Shown in pieces: positions 21,243-27,888 of a DNA stretch of 64,000 bases. The position numbers and the translations under genes were made by a program. Position 1 is the stretch's first letter; each line of letters starts with the position of its first letter. A model generated the notes under the pieces. The model was not told the origin of the DNA and made no database searches. It worked only from the letters and a program-made list of their open reading frames with translations. The DNA is from Eubacteriales bacterium (GTDB lineage Bacteria > Bacillota > Clostridia > Oscillospirales > CAG-272): the NCBI GenBank assembly GCA_045605765.1, contig JAZUQQ010000031.1, positions 169 through 64,168 on the forward strand. The letters run 5' to 3'.

Positions 21243-21791
21243 TCAGCTTTCAAGCTGCTTTCCGAGAAAGCTCGCTGCAGTCATAACAAGCTTTTTTTCA
21301 ACATCTGTATCTATCGATTTTTCGCTCTCAGAGGTGTAAAGCGAAATTACACATCCCGCGATGTCGCCCTCGCTGATTATCGGTACGGCACAGCTTATAA
21401 AATGATCGGTAGGATCCGGAGTGACGTGTATTTTTTCTTTGCCGCTTTCATAAACGTAAATAGTGCGATTTTCGATTATTTTTTCAAGCTCACTTGATAA
21501 AGATTTGTCTGCATACTCCTTTTTAGGAACACCCGAAAAGGCAATTACCGAGCTTCGGTCGCACACCACGACCGCCATAGAACAAGTCTTGTGTAGCGTT
21601 TCGGCGTACTGTGACGCCACGGTGTTTAGTTCTCCTATCGGTGAATATTTTTTAAAAATCACCTCACCCTCGCGATCTGTAAATATTTCGAGAGGGTCCC
21701 CCTCTTTTATTCGCATCGTTCTGCGGATTTCCTTGGGAATGACCACCCTGCCGAGGTCGTCTATGCGACGTACGATTCCTGTTGCTTTCAT
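21243..21791 (-). CDS. spoVT: Stage V sporulation protein T (AbrB-type DNA-binding domain plus GAF domain)
   Basis: MKATGIVRRIDDLGRVVIPKEIRRTMRIKEGDPLEIF...KKYSPIGEL...FLGKQLES; 182 aa with GAF C-terminus. Confidence 0.95.
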   Translation of the reverse strand: MKATGIVRRIDDLGRVVIPKEIRRTMRIKEGDPLEIFTDREGEVIFKKYSPIGELNTVASQYAETLHKTCSMAVVVCDRSSVIAFSGVPKKEYADKSLSSELEKIIENRTIYVYESGKEKIHVTPDPTDHFISCAVPIISEGDIAGCVISLYTSESEKSIDTDVEKKLVMTAASFLGKQLES

Positions 21792-21826
21792 ATATACATT
21801 TCTCCTTAAATTACAAATTGTAATGT

Positions 21827-21855
21827 TATTATCTGTATTTTGAGGAGATTTATAC
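21827..21855 (-). promoter_or_regulatory. Forespore sigma-G/sigma-F-type promoter of spoVT (copy A)
   Basis: GTATA-17 bp-GATAATA upstream of spoVT; both boxes are conserved in copy B. Confidence 0.65.
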
Positions 21856-21862
21856 TGCAAGA

Positions 21863-21891
21863 TTTACTTTTGAAATGAAATATGATATAAT
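21863..21891 (+). promoter_or_regulatory. sigma-A promoter for the acyltransferase
   Basis: TTTACT-17-TATAAT with extended TG. Confidence 0.5.
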
Positions 21892-21911
21892 AAAACAAAG
21901 GCGGTGAAGGT

Positions 21912-22961
21912 ATGAAAACTCAAAAAAATTATACACTTGAATTATTAAAATTGTTTGCATCATACATGGTGGTGTTTATTCACATAATGTTTTATGGGAA
22001 AACAGGTATTATTATGGATACTTTAGCCCGATTTGCAGTACCTCTTTTCTTTTTAATATCTGGCTATTATTCTTTTCAAATTAAACCTGAAAAAATCACA
22101 AAAAGAATAAGACACCTATTAGGTTTAATTATATTTGCGACAGTTTGTTACACCTTGTTTAACATAGCAATTTTATTGTCAAAAGGTAGTGTGGACGGAA
22201 TTGTTTCCTATTTTAGTAAGTATCTTAATATTTTAACCCTAATTAAAATTTTTATATTCAATATTCCCGTTAGCTCTGTGCATTTATGGTTTTTGTTGGC
22301 TCTTGTTTATGTCTATTTTATTTTTTATTTTGCAACTGTATTTCGTTTTAACGAAAAAGCTATATTTTTTATTTCGTTTTTGTTATTGTTTTTACATATA
22401 TTGTTAGGCGAATGCCTTTCTTCGGTTGGAATTGTGGTGCCCATTCCGATTGTGCGAAATTTTGCCCTAATGGGTATTCCGTTTTTTGGACTGGGTTTAT
22501 TCACAAAAAAACACGAGAACAAATTACGCAGCATCCCTAATTATGTGCTTATTATAACGGCTGCAATAGGAATTTTTGAATCCCTATTTTCTCGATATTT
22601 TTTTGGCAAAAATGAGTTATATGTTGGTTCTCTGCTTGTTTTGTTTGCGATTGTTGTTGTGTTTATTAAGTATCCAACTGTCAAAAAAACTCCGTTTTTT
22701 AATGCCCTGTCAGGTTGCAGCACCTATGTTTATATTTTCCATATTATGATTTCTTCTGTGATTCGCCAAATATATAAACTATTTACCATTGATTTTAACA
22801 CTTCTATAATTCTTAAATACGCACATCCCATCATAGTGTGCGTTGCATCAACCATCTTTGCATACGGAATTATACAACTGTTAAATGTTCTTTCATCAAA
22901 AAAACAAAAGCAAACCACAGGGGACAAAACGAAAACCACAGGGGACGGTTCTGTGTGTTAA
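21912..22961 (+). CDS. Acyltransferase family 3 (OafA/WecH-like membrane O-acyltransferase)
   Basis: LELLKLFASYMVVFIH, RFAVPLFFLISGY, HLWFL, multiple TM helices; visibly more AT-rich than flanking genes. Confidence 0.85.
   Translation: MKTQKNYTLELLKLFASYMVVFIHIMFYGKTGIIMDTLARFAVPLFFLISGYYSFQIKPEKITKRIRHLLGLIIFATVCYTLFNIAILLSKGSVDGIVSYFSKYLNILTLIKIFIFNIPVSSVHLWFLLALVYVYFIFYFATVFRFNEKAIFFISFLLLFLHILLGECLSSVGIVVPIPIVRNFALMGIPFFGLGLFTKKHENKLRSIPNYVLIITAAIGIFESLFSRYFFGKNELYVGSLLVLFAIVVVFIKYPTVKKTPFFNALSGCSTYVYIFHIMISSVIRQIYKLFTIDFNTSIILKYAHPIIVCVASTIFAYGIIQLLNVLSSKKQKQTTGDKTKTTGDGSVC
22912..22946 (+). repeat. 14-bp direct repeat AAACCACAGGGGAC x2 (21-bp period)
   Basis: Copies at 22912-22925 and 22933-22946, followed by GGTTCTGTGTG. 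Confidence 0.85.
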
Positions 22962-22963
22962 CT

Positions 22964-22995
22964 AAAAAAGCGAGGTGAATTTCACCTTGCTTTTT
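22964..22995. terminator. Bidirectional terminator after the acyltransferase
   Basis: AAAAAAGCGAGGTGA-loop-TCACCTTGCTTTTT. Confidence 0.8.
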
Positions 22996-23143
22996 CTATG
23001 TATAAAACCGCCGAAAACCATAAAATTAGGGGCTTGTGTTCAATAGGGCAAACCAGCGAAAACCAGTGTTTATGCGGGTTTAAGTCGGTTTGCCCTATTA
23101 TAACGCATTCCTCTGTTCTTCTCACAATACCTGTTGCTTTCAT
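22982..23143 (-). pseudogene. Truncated spoVT 5' copy fused to unrelated sequence (53-aa ORF MKATGIVRRTEECVIIGQT...)
   Basis: First 9 codons encode MKATGIVRR as in spoVT, with synonymous differences; GAGGAG RBS; not in the ORF track (<60 aa). Confidence 0.7.
23042..23099. repeat. 13-bp perfect inverted repeat with 32-nt spacer
   Basis: AATAGGGCAAACC (23042-23054) / GGTTTGCCCTATT (23087-23099). Confidence 0.9.
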
Positions 23144-23223
23144 ATATAAAAACTCCTCGCTTTACAAATTTGTACTGTTAGTATCTGTAAAACAAGGAGA
23201 TTTATACTGCAGCAATTACTTTT
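23130..23223 (-). repeat. Second copy (B) of the spoVT promoter/RBS/start region, imperfect direct repeat of 21778-21871
   Basis: Shared blocks CCTGTTGCTTTCATATATA, TTACAAATT, TATCTGTA, AGGAGATTTATACTGCA; promoter GTATA-17-GATACTA at 23179-23207. Confidence 0.88.
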
Positions 23224-23321: not shown

Positions 23322-23351
23322 TTGACAAGATTGGTTCAGAGAGTATATAAT
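23322..23351 (+). promoter_or_regulatory. sigma-A promoter for the large surface protein
   Basis: TTGACA-18-TATAAT. Confidence 0.7.
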
Positions 23352-23427: not shown

Positions 23428-26400
23428 ATGAAAAAACTAATCGCAATTATCCTGACACTTTCATTTATTCTCACACTTATCCCGGTTACCTTTTCATCCT
23501 ATGCCGCTACGGAGGTTATCCTCAATAACGCAAACAAAGGCTGGACCGCCAATAAAGCGACCGATCGCTTCGTAACAGACGGGGAGCAGGAATTTTACTG
23601 GAAAACTGGTGCGACCGATGTTAACACATGGGAATGGCCGGTTTACCGCTCAGAAAGTCTTGAAGAGGGAGTGATTGAGGCGGTCATCAGCCCTTCGGCT
23701 AATATCGGTATCCTCTTTGGAGCTACGGGTATTGATTTAGTCGCGGATGGCAGCGGCAATGGCCTTGACAGCACTACGAAAGATATCAGATTTTATTGGG
23801 TGGCTATCACCGAAAATAACGGAACTTACAACCTTGTTTTCAGAAAGGATAGCAATGCGTATGGCAAGTATGCTGATGATGATGCTGATGCTGATAATGA
23901 CGTACTTAATTTCAAACTTGATGAGAAGTATAACATTGACGGTAAGTCTGATATCAGGCTGAGAGTACACTTCAAGAAGGAAGGCTACATTCAATTTTAC
24001 ATTAACGATGTTGCTTCTTCTTCACGCACGGGTACGGAATGGGCGACATTTGGCAATCAGCTCGGTATGTGTGTTACCACTGTTAAAGGTTATTATACCG
24101 AGGAAAATGCAAAGGTCGGATACGTTAAGGAGTTTTCGTTCAACGATAACTTTTATAACAACTGGACGCCCAGACGCGGAGTTCTCGGAGTTCCATCGTT
24201 CATACCTTACGCGCAAGGCGAATATCAATGGCTCTATCAAGATAATGACCAATGGAACAACCCGATTCGTTATAACACCGATCTTGACGAAGGAACTATT
24301 ACGGCAACTGTTACCAAAGGCTCAAAAACAGGTATTATATTCGGCGCAACGGGTCTTGATAATGTAAATGACGATGGTTCTTCTGTGGCGAATGCAGCCG
24401 GTCTTAAGTATTACTGGGCTAACGTTAACGGAAACACGTTGACGCTCGAAGTAGATTCTAAAGACGATAAACCAAAGGAGCCTTGGAAAACTGTTACTCT
24501 TCCGATATCCTCGGATGAAGCTGACTATACTATTAAAGTAAAATTCAGCAAACAGGGAGATATTTCGGTATCTGTAAATGACAAGGAGTATATTGCTGTA
24601 ACGGCAGAGGATCTTGGAAAGGCAGGCTTTGAAATCTACGGAAAAGAAGTAGGAATGATGGCTGTTCAGGTTAAGGATGCCGATGTAGTTGCAAACTCAG
24701 TCGCGGGAAGCGTTAAGGAATTTACCATTCACGTTTGCACCCCCGGCGCAGAGGCTGACTGTGATAGCGCACAGACCTGTACCGTATGCGGCGAGGTAAT
24801 TAATCCCGCACTCGGACACACCCCCGGCGCAGCGGCTGACTGTGAAAACGATCAGACCTGTACCGTATGCGGCGAGGTTCTGACTGAAAAGCTTGGACAC
24901 ACTGCTGGCGCAGAGGCTGACTGTGAAAACGATCAGACCTGTACCGTATGTGGTGATGTAATTAAAGCAGCACTTGGACACGACTACGACGCAGTAGTAA
25001 CTGAGCCCACCTGCACTGAGGCTGGATACACCACCTACACCTGCTCGGTATGCGGCGACAGCTACACTGATGATGAAACCGATGCACTCGCACACGACTA
25101 CGACGCAGTTGTAACTGAGCCCACCTGCACTGAGGCTGGATACACCACCTACACCTGCTCGGTATGCGGCGACAGCTATACTGACGACGAAACCGAAGCA
25201 CTCGGACACAGCTACGACGCAGTTGTAACTGAGCCCACCTGCACTGAGGCTGGATACACCACTTACACTTGCTCGGTATGCGACGACAGCTATACTGACG
25301 ACGAAACCGAAGCACTCGGACACAGCTACGACGCAGTTGTAACTGCACCTACCTGCACCGACAAGGGTTACACCACTTACACTTGCTCGGTATGCGACGA
25401 CAGCTACGTTGCTGACGAAGTAGCGGCACTCGGACACACTGAGGGCACTCCTGTTCGTGAGAACGAGGTTCCCGCAACTCTGAACGCTCCCGGCTCCTAC
25501 GACGAAGTAGTTTACTGCTCCGTATGTAACGAAGAGCTCAGCCGTGAGCCGAAGACCATCGATCAGCTGACCGGCGCGGTCGCTGAGATCGACGGTACTT
25601 ACTACGCAACCTTGGCAGAGGCAGTTGCTAATGCAAAGGATGGCGCTATCATCACTCTGTTGAAGTCTGTTAAGGGCTCCGGCGTCGTAATCGATAAGAA
25701 CATAACTATCGACTTCGGCGGCTACACCTACACCTTCACTACTCCTGCTGTCGGCTCTAAAGGCACTACCACTTTGGGCTTCCAGATTCTTCAGAACAAC
25801 ACTGTTGTCCTGAAGAACGGTAAACTTGAAGTTTCTGTGGAGAATAAGAAGGACTACGCTATGTTGATTCAGAACTACGCTGACCTGACCATCACCGGCA
25901 TGATCTTAGATGGCACTCAGCTGGACCGCTTCAACGGCTATAACTACTCCTATGTTGTTTCCGTTAACTGCGGTACTGTTCTGATTGAGAACACCACTAT
26001 CATCGGTAACGATGAGGGCGATGCTTACGCACTGTCTGCTGATAAGTACGCTTCCTATGCAATCCCCAATGTTACTGTTAAGAACGTTACCGTTACCGGT
26101 AATATCAGCGTTGGCGGCGGCAATCTGACCATCGAGTCCGGCTCCTTCAAGGGAAATGGCTCTAACGGCTTGATTTATGTAGAAAGCGGCAACGTTGAGA
26201 TCAACGGCGGTACCTTCGAGGCAACTCTTGGTGCTGACAACTACTCTATGGCTATTTGGGCTAAGGGTGGCGAGGTCGTTATCAATAACGGTACCTTCAA
26301 GAATGCTACCGACGGTTCTGTACGCGGAACTGACCTTATCTACGCTTCCGCAAATGGCGCAGTCGTCATTAACGGCGGTAGATTTGAGGCAGCTACTCCC

Positions 26401-27888
26401 GCATGGACTCTCAACCTTAAAGATGCTGACCGCGCTACTGCAAGCATCGTTGTTAACGGCGGTGAGTTCGTTAACTTTGATCCTATGAACAGCATCGCAG
26501 AAGGCAACGGCACTAACTTCGTTGCTGAGGGCAAGCATACTGCTGAGGCAAACGGCGTTTACACCATCTGCGGCAAGGCTGCTCTTGAAGCAGTTGAAAA
26601 AAATCGTGTTGAGGCTGATTGCACCAACAACGGTTCTTACGATATGGTTGTTTACTGCGAATGCGGTAAGGAACTCTCTCGCGAGACCTTCACGATTGAT
26701 GCAACCGGACACAGCTACGACGCAGTTGTAACTGAGTCCACCTGCACTGAGGCTGGATACACCACCTACACCTGCTCGGTATGCGGCGACACTTACGTTG
26801 CTGACGAAGTAGCAGCACTCGGACACAAATTTGACAATGTAATTGAAACCGTATCCGGCACCTGCGTTGACGGCGGATACACCGTTTACGAGTGTGCTTG
26901 CGGAGAAACCAATACGGTTCTGGGCGAACTTGGCACCGAACACGTTGTTGATATCAAGAACGCTAAATGGTCGGCAGACAGTGACTACCACTGGATAGTA
27001 TGTGACTGCAACGCAAAGCTTGAAATGGAAGAGCACGACGCCCTTCACTGTACGATCTGTAATTTCTACAGGACTGGTATATATGTAGAAGACGGAAAGT
27101 ACTACTTCATGGAATACACGGGAGAGATTCTTAAGGGCAAGTTCTACGTAACAGAAAATGCATCAAACGGACTTCTCAACGGTGCAGGCTGGTACTATGC
27201 AGATGACGTGACCGGAGAATTCCTTAACGGCTTCCATAAAGTAGAAGGAACGCTTTACTACTTCGTAAACGGACAGGGAGGAGAAAACGGAATCCAGCCT
27301 ATAGAAAACGCTTACTACTGTCTTGACTGGACCGGAGCAGTAAGAATCGGAAAGATCTACGTAACAGAAGAGTCTACAAACAACATAGAAGGCTTCGAAA
27401 AAGGCTGGTACTACACAGATACAAACGGAAGATTCTATAATAAAGACTTCAAATATATCGAAGAAGAGGGATATACCTACTACTTCGAAAACGGACAGGG
27501 AACCTCGAACGGAGTACAGGAGATCGACGGAAAGCTTTACTGCTTCGACTGGCTCGGAAGACTCAGAGCAAACGAGGTAGACGGAAATAGAATCTATGTA
27601 ACTGAAGACTCTGGAAACGGTATAGTAACCGCAGGCTGGTACTACACCGACGAAAAAGGAGCATTCTATAACGAACGTTTTGTAAAGATCGGAGAAACCA
27701 CGTACTATTTCATAAAAGGTAAGGGAATCTCGAACGGAGTACATAAGATCGACGGAAAGCTTTACTGCTTCGACTGGCTCGGAAGACTCAGAACCGGAAA
27801 TATTTTTATCACCGAGGATTCTACTAACGGTAAGGTAAGCACTGGTTGGCATAATACTGCTAACGATGGTTCTATTATTACCGACTAA
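23428..27888 (+). CDS. Large exported/cell-surface modular protein (1486 aa): signal peptide, two beta-sandwich-like repeats, Cys/His repeats, beta-helix-like region, C-terminal wall-binding-type repeats
   Basis: MKKLIAIILTLSFILTLIPVTFSSYAA signal peptide; internal repeats visible in both DNA and protein; GAAAGGA RBS. Confidence 0.85.
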   Translation: MKKLIAIILTLSFILTLIPVTFSSYAATEVILNNANKGWTANKATDRFVTDGEQEFYWKTGATDVNTWEWPVYRSESLEEGVIEAVISPSANIGILFGATGIDLVADGSGNGLDSTTKDIRFYWVAITENNGTYNLVFRKDSNAYGKYADDDADADNDVLNFKLDEKYNIDGKSDIRLRVHFKKEGYIQFYINDVASSSRTGTEWATFGNQLGMCVTTVKGYYTEENAKVGYVKEFSFNDNFYNNWTPRRGVLGVPSFIPYAQGEYQWLYQDNDQWNNPIRYNTDLDEGTITATVTKGSKTGIIFGATGLDNVNDDGSSVANAAGLKYYWANVNGNTLTLEVDSKDDKPKEPWKTVTLPISSDEADYTIKVKFSKQGDISVSVNDKEYIAVTAEDLGKAGFEIYGKEVGMMAVQVKDADVVANSVAGSVKEFTIHVCTPGAEADCDSAQTCTVCGEVINPALGHTPGAAADCENDQTCTVCGEVLTEKLGHTAGAEADCENDQTCTVCGDVIKAALGHDYDAVVTEPTCTEAGYTTYTCSVCGDSYTDDETDALAHDYDAVVTEPTCTEAGYTTYTCSVCGDSYTDDETEALGHSYDAVVTEPTCTEAGYTTYTCSVCDDSYTDDETEALGHSYDAVVTAPTCTDKGYTTYTCSVCDDSYVADEVAALGHTEGTPVRENEVPATLNAPGSYDEVVYCSVCNEELSREPKTIDQLTGAVAEIDGTYYATLAEAVANAKDGAIITLLKSVKGSGVVIDKNITIDFGGYTYTFTTPAVGSKGTTTLGFQILQNNTVVLKNGKLEVSVENKKDYAMLIQNYADLTITGMILDGTQLDRFNGYNYSYVVSVNCGTVLIENTTIIGNDEGDAYALSADKYASYAIPNVTVKNVTVTGNISVGGGNLTIESGSFKGNGSNGLIYVESGNVEINGGTFEATLGADNYSMAIWAKGGEVVINNGTFKNATDGSVRGTDLIYASANGAVVINGGRFEAATPAWTLNLKDADRATASIVVNGGEFVNFDPMNSIAEGNGTNFVAEGKHTAEANGVYTICGKAALEAVEKNRVEADCTNNGSYDMVVYCECGKELSRETFTIDATGHSYDAVVTESTCTEAGYTTYTCSVCGDTYVADEVAALGHKFDNVIETVSGTCVDGGYTVYECACGETNTVLGELGTEHVVDIKNAKWSADSDYHWIVCDCNAKLEMEEHDALHCTICNFYRTGIYVEDGKYYFMEYTGEILKGKFYVTENASNGLLNGAGWYYADDVTGEFLNGFHKVEGTLYYFVNGQGGENGIQPIENAYYCLDWTGAVRIGKIYVTEESTNNIEGFEKGWYYTDTNGRFYNKDFKYIEEEGYTYYFENGQGTSNGVQEIDGKLYCFDWLGRLRANEVDGNRIYVTEDSGNGIVTAGWYYTDEKGAFYNERFVKIGETTYYFIKGKGISNGVHKIDGKLYCFDWLGRLRTGNIFITEDSTNGKVSTGWHNTANDGSIITD
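24736..24978 (+). repeat. Intragenic tandem repeat, 3 x 81 bp (HTPGAEADCENDQTCTVCGEVxxxxLG)
   Basis: Units start at 24736, 24817 and 24898. Confidence 0.92.
24979..25434 (+). repeat. Intragenic tandem repeat, 4 x 114 bp (HxYDAVVTEPTCTEAGYTTYTCSVCGDSYxxDExxALG); fifth copy at 26710-26823
   Basis: Near-identical units start at 24979, 25093, 25207 and 25321. Confidence 0.95.
27100..27880 (+). repeat. About three ~73-75-aa aromatic-rich cell-wall-binding-like repeats
   Basis: YVTExS.N...GWYYxD..G...YYF..G.G..NG...I...YCxDWxG; identical 47-bp blocks at 27521-27567 and 27746-27792. Confidence 0.8.

Follow-up and report, generated by a model that had tools for sequence, protein, structure and literature searches.

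What does it mean that the start of the sporulation gene spoVT occurs twice, on either side of a single AT-rich gene? The window analysed here, a stretch of 64,000 nucleotides from an Eubacteriales bacterium of the order Oscillospirales (GCA_045605765.1, contig JAZUQQ010000031.1, positions 169 to 64,168 of the forward strand), carries such an islet directly upstream of spoVT. We consider it probable, at roughly three chances in four, that the islet is a single-gene cassette without a recombinase, located at the codon-10/11 attachment site of large serine recombinase (LSR) elements inside spoVT. Judged by comparison of sequences, it forms one unit within a widespread system of cassette arrays, itself derived from LSR elements with spoVT as their target, and the window is a plain one-cassette example of that system.

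The repeat consists of two co-oriented direct copies on the minus strand, copy A at 21757-21871 and copy B at 23109-23223 (about 115 nt each), with a start-to-start period of 1352 bp and 78-81% identity over the aligned pieces. The imperfect direct repeat of about 95 bp (21778-21871 and 23130-23223) reported in a preliminary description of this DNA is real and slightly longer than reported. Its content is the spoVT promoter, the ribosome-binding site (RBS) and the first 10 codons; an identical 19-nt core, TATATATGAAAGCAACAGG, is common to both copies, and both keep the promoter boxes GTATA-17-GATA(A/C)TA, the RBS and the ATG, as had been stated. The chance expectation of a 20-nt core pattern is about 0.01 per 19-kb locus, and a search of the 1.8-Mb genome revealed no copies beyond A and B. 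Copy A is fused to the resident spoVT at about GA 21761-21760, the gene from codon 11 on (B′) being resident DNA. Copy B was rightly described as reading in frame as MKATGIVRR with synonymous changes and as departing from spoVT at codons 10-12 into a hairpin: past the divergence point it runs into GTTATAATA, a hairpin with a 13-bp stem (23042-23099) and a bidirectional terminator. The 53-codon frame that starts in copy B (22982-23143) is probably no gene, and neither this frame nor the tail behind the stub matched any protein family in the family search. It is hardly credible that copy B is the remnant of a duplicated spoVT or AbrB paralogue, truncated by the insertion of an unrelated acyltransferase gene. 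The MKATGIVRR start is indeed common to AbrB-family genes, but here the promoter and the RBS are duplicated as well, and the sequence after codon 10 is a conserved non-coding tail, without a protein-family match, which recurs on at least 120 contigs and always with the same break point. On the strength of the duplicated promoter and RBS and of this tail at a constant break point, a paralogue remnant was rejected.

The origin of the tail can be read from genomes in which spoVT is split. The right-junction pattern of the codon-10/11 family, where spoVT is cut and TTGACA-N5 stands ahead of it, was found in 14 of 401 genomes, while a type-1 stub (broken at codon 10/11, as in the window; type-2 stubs break after codon 33) together with its tail lies on another contig in 10 of the 13 genomes with split spoVT. 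One of the split genomes, G035, has the remainder of spoVT preceded by ...TCTCTTGACATAATGG/GATGATTTGGGC (slashes mark junctions) and the stub ...ATTGACGAT/TAAGTTATAATAGG at another contig end. In two further relatives, G180 and G328, an LSR gene on the spoVT strand ends 135-160 nt before the codon-10/11 junction, the two recombinases sharing 43% identity. Larger serine-recombinase elements at the same position, which the preliminary description had proposed to look for, are thus present. A second family cuts the gene after codon 33: 8 of the 213 SpoVT_C matches in 251 genomes sit in open frames of 718-808 amino acids (aa), and the three such frames examined (G270, G055 and G126) are LSR-SpoVT fusions reading ...GDP/LEIYTD..., whose left junctions are found 14-22 kb away with the tail CAGACAACAT(T/G)GACA. 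The same tail, the type-2 tail, bounds recombinase-less cassettes in G001, a genome of the window's own genus. An LSR gene at the junction was found only in these five full-length relatives.

Copy B leaves spoVT at codon 10/11 into ..GTTATAATA.., as the left junctions do in LSR-split genomes, so that the position and the element-side sequence are both shared. Since the same tails stand at the left junctions of LSR elements splitting spoVT, copy B is, by this likeness, an attL-type (B.P′) junction of the codon-10/11 LSR family, and copy A with spoVT can be read as a regenerated B.B′ (attB-type) site whose promoter side was brought by the cassette. The joined element ends of this LSR family read TTGACA-17 nt-TATAAT (inferred attP), the -35 box coming from the right end and the -10 box from the tail, and hence the TATAAT of the tail is probably the -10 box of a promoter that exists in the excised circle alone. 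Circular intermediates of Tn4451/Tn4453 (TnpX) likewise create a promoter across the joint. The promoter of the spoVT elements differs in that it is predicted from sequence alone, and in that transcription from it would enter the left end and lead away from the LSR gene.

Two arrangements in relatives touch on the fate of spoVT itself. In the split state of G180:C75 (L166:1501-2025), the TTG within the element's TTGACA opens the frame MTRS-DDLGRVVIPKEIRR..., and SpoVT might still be produced there, minus the first 10 residues. In G249:C76 (7729-7760 and 9742-9785), an attR-type junction (TTGACATAATGG/GACGACC...) precedes a complete spoVT of this contig by 2 kb, an arrangement that may represent an intermediate with the gene restored through duplication.

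In the sense of spoVT, the cassette of the window is ordered as tail (P′), terminator, antisense cargo gene, cargo promoter and B module, the last made up of promoter, RBS and 10 codons; its boundaries were inferred from shared cassettes elsewhere (Table 1). Over the stretch 21760-21907, which starts at codon 10, crosses the promoter and ends at the cargo RBS, the window is 91% identical to modules beside pseudo-copies in G037 and G009, which belong to other families, and this identity ends at codon 10/11. Such similarity to modules in distant families argues that copy A came in with the cassette. The cargo promoter is part of the conserved module and recurs in G009:C42, while the terminator, which closes the cargo gene and any transcript from the tail, has pieces found again at cassette ends in relatives. 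The one AT-rich, foreign-looking gene noticed earlier between the copies is an Acyl_transf_3 gene with no matching NCBIfam name, and it is foreign: GC content in the cargo region is 0.26-0.34 (about 0.30 for the gene) against a genome mean of 0.446. An insertion would have joined the older promoter and 10 codons to the tail, forming copy B as an attL-type junction, and the B module of the cassette to the resident gene from codon 11, forming copy A and spoVT as a usable attB. As attB would be regenerated by the insertion, spoVT stays intact and further cassettes could stack. Of the element proposed in the preliminary description, with attL and attR in the 5′ end of spoVT, insertion with a replacement promoter and N-terminus stands, given the 91% module identity and a cassette, 99.7% identical among genomes, that ends in the same promoter; the layout had to be revised, being attL-type (B) plus regenerated attB (A).

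Alternatively, a full LSR element could have integrated and spoVT could have been repaired later, so that the islet would be a fixed, inert scar with one surviving cargo gene and no mobility. With one cassette, two copies diverged to about 80% identity and no cognate LSR, the genome agrees with such a history, which we nevertheless regard as unlikely. A full element that decayed would be expected to leave behind a split gene and an attR with remains of the LSR; a second promoter and 5′ end would not arise in this way, and for the same reason the "decayed element" of the preliminary description does not fit the intact spoVT. The arrival of copy A with the cassette, argued above, and the occurrence of near-identical cassettes in different species also speak against a relic.

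In regard to distribution, the stub-plus-tail pattern matches at least 120 contigs of gut Clostridia metagenome-assembled genomes (MAGs), with Acutalibacteraceae, Oscillospiraceae, Ruminococcus and some Lachnospiraceae among the matches listed. Within every locus the stubs point the same way and the real spoVT comes last, up to 5 units forming an array; in 40 relatives searched, pieces of stub, tail and terminator are present many times per genome. In G037, from another family of the order, 4 stubs spaced by 2-3.4 kb precede the real spoVT and separate unrelated genes, namely a sugar oxidoreductase with transporter and AraC regulator, an Abi protein, a GH30 enzyme and a DeoR operon. The catalogue of cargo behind the stubs, suggested beforehand, comprises 88 complete cassettes of 619-5817 bp (median about 1.25 kb, the upper size bound being set by the 8-kb loci); their 309 open reading frames (ORFs) form 244 clusters and include restriction-modification, Abi, Fic, AraC/sugar and surface genes. 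In a sample of the order, type-1 stubs are present in 30 of 249 good genomes (about 12%) and in 23 of 133 genera. The codon-10/11 junction is intact in 197 of 251 genomes, usually as a single copy, and the empty site sought in relatives is thus the norm in the order.

Four MAGs share a 4.96-kb cassette at 99.7% identity, with unrelated sequence upstream of it. The shared stretch begins at -4 in the upstream stub and reaches +28 in the copy that follows; one MAG has the real spoVT as this following copy, another has a stub, and the same promoter stands at the cassette end. Cassettes would accordingly spread horizontally and then be inserted or exchanged at the spoVT start; mobilization in trans by the recombinase of a related element is possible, with indirect support from near-identical cassettes in different species. 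Within the window's genus, neighbouring genes are shared (a coaW-type kinase, and the surface-protein gene in G005), while the cargo differs. The preliminary description would have been contradicted by an unvarying cargo without any empty allele, or by an AbrB remnant in copy B; cargo varies within the genus and empty alleles are common. Just outside a stub-bounded cassette of G005:C10, beside the surface-protein homologue, lies a different 400-aa gene (L019:8118-9320) which we take, from its sequence without a family search, to be Acyl_transf_3-like. No stub-plus-tail match was obtained in viral contigs, phage records or plasmids, the sole plasmid match being an ordinary spoVT gene, and a phage or plasmid vehicle for the cassettes was rejected on this basis.

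Some stubs show further structures. A palindrome resembling repetitive extragenic palindromes (GTAGGG...two GC-rich hairpins...CCCTAC, about 60-70 nt) is found between the promoter and the RBS of stubs in L029, L040, L041, L050, L055:5349, L059:5263 and L013:16847-17047, the last being the distal stub of G037. Another insert of about 70 nt (TTACGAGGGTACCGAG...GGTGAGGTTCTTATAT) stands between RBS and ATG in L028:5621, L055:4223 and L065:6647, and resembles a miniature inverted-repeat transposable element with a preferred target in the spoVT-start module. In a third type of stub, the break comes behind codon 30 or so (..RIREGGLGYR or ..RIREDGLGCR; L027:4297 and L039:259). A type-2 stub of G001:C16 is directly followed by a 148-aa gene (L014:12992-13438) that we judged TnpV-like from its sequence, with no family search; this hints that a recombinase-less cassette may have retained a directionality or excision factor.

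How such cassettes move is less evident than where they sit. As first observed, no recombinase is left in the window cassette or beside it. The genome has two near-identical LSR genes at contig ends (C51:317-1948 and C21:1-1533; 544 and 511 aa), a position that points to a repeated mobile element breaking the assembly, and 8 tyrosine recombinases, all on other contigs. A resident cognate LSR was rejected, these LSRs lying at contig ends elsewhere and being only 28% identical to the spoVT-site family, and so was an integron-like system with an adjacent integrase, as no recombinase is present among the most-matched cargo families or beside the arrays. No Xer/dif-like or inverted-repeat core was seen by eye. 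Two routes of movement can be envisaged. A cognate LSR acting in trans could recombine the attL-type circle junction with attB, or homologous recombination could proceed through the highly conserved B module; both are possible movers of the cassettes. The window cassette itself is probably fixed for now, because the genome lacks a cognate LSR.

Several observations weigh against assigning the cassettes to an LSR system. The low identity of the window genome's LSRs to the spoVT-site family is one of them; furthermore, no recombinase occurs among the 25 most-matched Pfam families per set of cargo from 120 loci, tblastn with the LSRs of the window's genome gave one partial match only in these 120 loci, no LSR was found near arrays in 40 relatives, and three genomes (G026, G021 and G003) carry stubs without any PF07508 (LSR) match. 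Canonical LSRs are not known to recombine attL-type with attB sites. For the organism of the window, where contigs are of low depth only, no reads from a circle or an empty site were found, and the "joints" obtained have short sides and come from other organisms. Nor does the LSR reading account for the way in which a B module first entered a mobile unit. Finally, cassette junctions have no single sharp crossover, and the attempt to map one by polymorphism linkage failed on a mosaic core. Copies with a common tail-side cassette differ at +11, +14, +17, +29, +34, +35 and +38, those with a common promoter-side cassette differ from +8 or +11 onward, and the differing core positions are mostly wobble positions. 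GA at +30/+31 fits the split-gene junctions, whereas the cassette junctions are mosaic from +11 to +38. Such mosaics fit frequent homologous exchange inside the conserved core, besides such site-specific events as may occur, and suggest that LSR-type and homologous processes may both shape the arrays.

Homologous recombination could even be the whole explanation. Stub, tail and promoter modules would then be portable homology arms, with RecA acting at the ultra-conserved spoVT start through loop-out and through Campbell-style or double crossover after DNA uptake, and no site-specific recombinase would be active at present. We hold this to be doubtful, though well worth considering: crossover points vary from -4 to +39 in a core mosaic of wobble polymorphisms, a recombinase in cis is missing and some array-bearing genomes have no LSR match, no long stretch other than the core around the ATG is entirely free of differences between species, and the attR-type remnant upstream of the intact spoVT in G249 fits restoration of the gene by duplication. 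On the other hand, the boundaries of shared cassettes cluster at -4 and at +28 to +31 or +43 to +47 instead of spreading across the module of about 200 bp, and homology does not account for arrays at spoVT rather than at other conserved genes.

The tail provides a further argument. Counted from the ATG, conservation of stub and tail spans -25 to +95, and across at least 120 contigs the P′ half-site (GTTATAATA with neighbouring bases) and the tail hairpin are better conserved than promoter or cargo. Such strong conservation, unexpected for inert scars, argues for continued function. The hairpin has alternative complementary arms (GGGCAAACC/GGTTTGCCC and GGACAAAA/TTTTGTCC); tails have a mean folding energy of -15.3 kcal/mol compared with -9.9 kcal/mol for shuffles, and stems of at least 7 nt occur in 54 of 151 tails but in 4 of 151 shuffles. 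No credible match was found in Rfam, and the tail was therefore rejected as a known RNA family. Metatranscriptome contigs span the tail, although they are unstranded and may derive in part from DNA. In gut metagenomes, the two modules reach a summed depth of 100-450, compared with 0-5 on the flanks.

A more far-reaching proposal, which we offer as speculative and improbable, is an integron-like gene-capture platform of gut and rumen Clostridia built on a serine recombinase. Circular single-gene cassettes with an attL-type joint (spoVT promoter, 10 codons and P′ tail) would be inserted at the spoVT start by an LSR in trans, in an attL x attB reaction that regenerates attB each time and leaves the essential forespore regulator intact, while the tail would contribute a promoter specific to the circle, along with a structured leader RNA, and these would mark or control the excised state.

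Table 1. Coordinates of the spoVT islet in the window
Feature	Position	Strand	Description
Intact spoVT	21243-21791	-	182 aa, AbrB-type N-domain and SpoVT_C; Pfam SpoVT_C 2.6e-38, TIGR02851 229 bits
Whole cassette as inserted	21760-23112	-	About 1353 bp: tail, terminator, cargo, cargo promoter, B module
Copy A, predicted cassette-borne B module	21760-21871	-	Forespore-type promoter GTATA-17-GATAATA, RBS, ATG 21791, codons 1-10
Divergent sigma-A-type cargo promoter and RBS	21863-21911	+	TTTACT-17-TGATATAAT; 10/12 matches, with TG
Cargo gene	21912-22961	+	349-aa membrane acyltransferase, Acyl_transf_3 5.2e-20
Bidirectional intrinsic terminator	22964-22996	.	Minus-strand stem 22987-22973, then T run
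Conserved tail (predicted P′ side of attachment site)	22997-23112	-	GGAATGCGTTATAATA; -10 TATAAT 23102-23097; hairpin 23099-23042 enclosing AAACCCGCATAAACACTGGTTT
Copy B, predicted older B module	23113-23223	-	Promoter, RBS, ATG 23143, codons 1-10; joined to tail

Divergent from copy B and adjoining it, the gene at 23428-27888 (plus strand) encodes a secreted protein of 1486 aa for which no Pfam or NCBIfam family matched. Its 81-nt tandem repeats (24738-24994) encode Cys-rich CxxC modules, and a perfect TTGACA-18-TATAAT promoter (23322-23351) stands ahead of the gene.

Among known systems, the closest analogues would be the pseudo-SCC stacks at rlmH, the cis-mobilizable elements (CIMEs) and the skin-type elements, with integrons comparable by function only. 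The islands of the staphylococcal cassette chromosome (SCC) and pseudo-SCC type at rlmH (orfX) are moved by the large serine recombinases CcrAB and CcrC. Like the spoVT arrays, they form tandem stacks at one attachment site in the end of a conserved gene, with the target intact and the site regenerated, and many units lack a recombinase of their own and presumably move in trans. However, the spoVT site is at the 5′ end, so each cassette must bring promoter, RBS and first codons; moreover, spoVT cassettes are mostly single genes of about 1 kb, their cognate LSR elements split spoVT, and their movement in trans is putative. CIMEs and tandem accretion are known at attachment sites of integrative and conjugative elements, such as ICESt1/ICESt3 at fda. 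The window cassette has the traits of a recombinase-less unit of the CIME or pseudo-SCC type, being flanked by att-type direct repeats, devoid of recombination genes and beside the site of related self-mobile elements. CIME systems differ in using tyrosine integrases and a gene 3′ end, and the spoVT arrays are far more widespread and modular. Integrons and clusters of attC sites lacking integrases (CALINs), with IntI, attI and attC cassette arrays, share with them arrays of small cassettes in one orientation, mostly with a single gene each and highly diverse in cargo, a conserved structured site between cassettes and anchorage of the array at one end. In contrast, the spoVT arrays have no adjacent IntI-type tyrosine integrase with attI and the promoter Pc, their sites are gene-start copies with an LSR-type half-site instead of attC, their cassettes carry their own promoter, RBS and terminator, and their crossover points are non-uniform.

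Intervening LSR elements have been described in several sporulation genes: skin in sigK, SPbeta in spsM, gin in gerE and yin in yabG (PMC5025042, PMC4191935, PMC5595907, PMC10747680). The full-length spoVT relatives resemble them as LSR elements inside a sporulation gene, and the window cassette uses their site. However, the target of skin-like elements is interrupted and restored only on excision, whereas spoVT in the window is uninterrupted, has its own promoter copy and needs no excision. SpoVT acts in the forespore, the germ line, and not in the mother cell, in contrast to skin-type targets. As the preliminary description had supposed, none of the papers searched names spoVT as an integration target, nor did the search yield a description of these cassette arrays, and the system is apparently undescribed.

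A gene for a forespore, and thus germ-line, regulator would join the sporulation genes that serve as landing sites of mobile elements. The landing site would here have turned into a stackable slot for accessory genes of defence, surface and sugar use, without loss of the host gene. With about 12% of genomes and 23 of 133 sampled genera of uncultured gut and rumen Clostridia concerned, the arrays bear on how strain-variable genes and contig breaks in MAGs are read. Should the cassettes be moved by an LSR that acts on attL-type sites, this would be a mode of recombination unexpected for LSRs, of relevance to mobile-element biology and to the building of recombinase tools.

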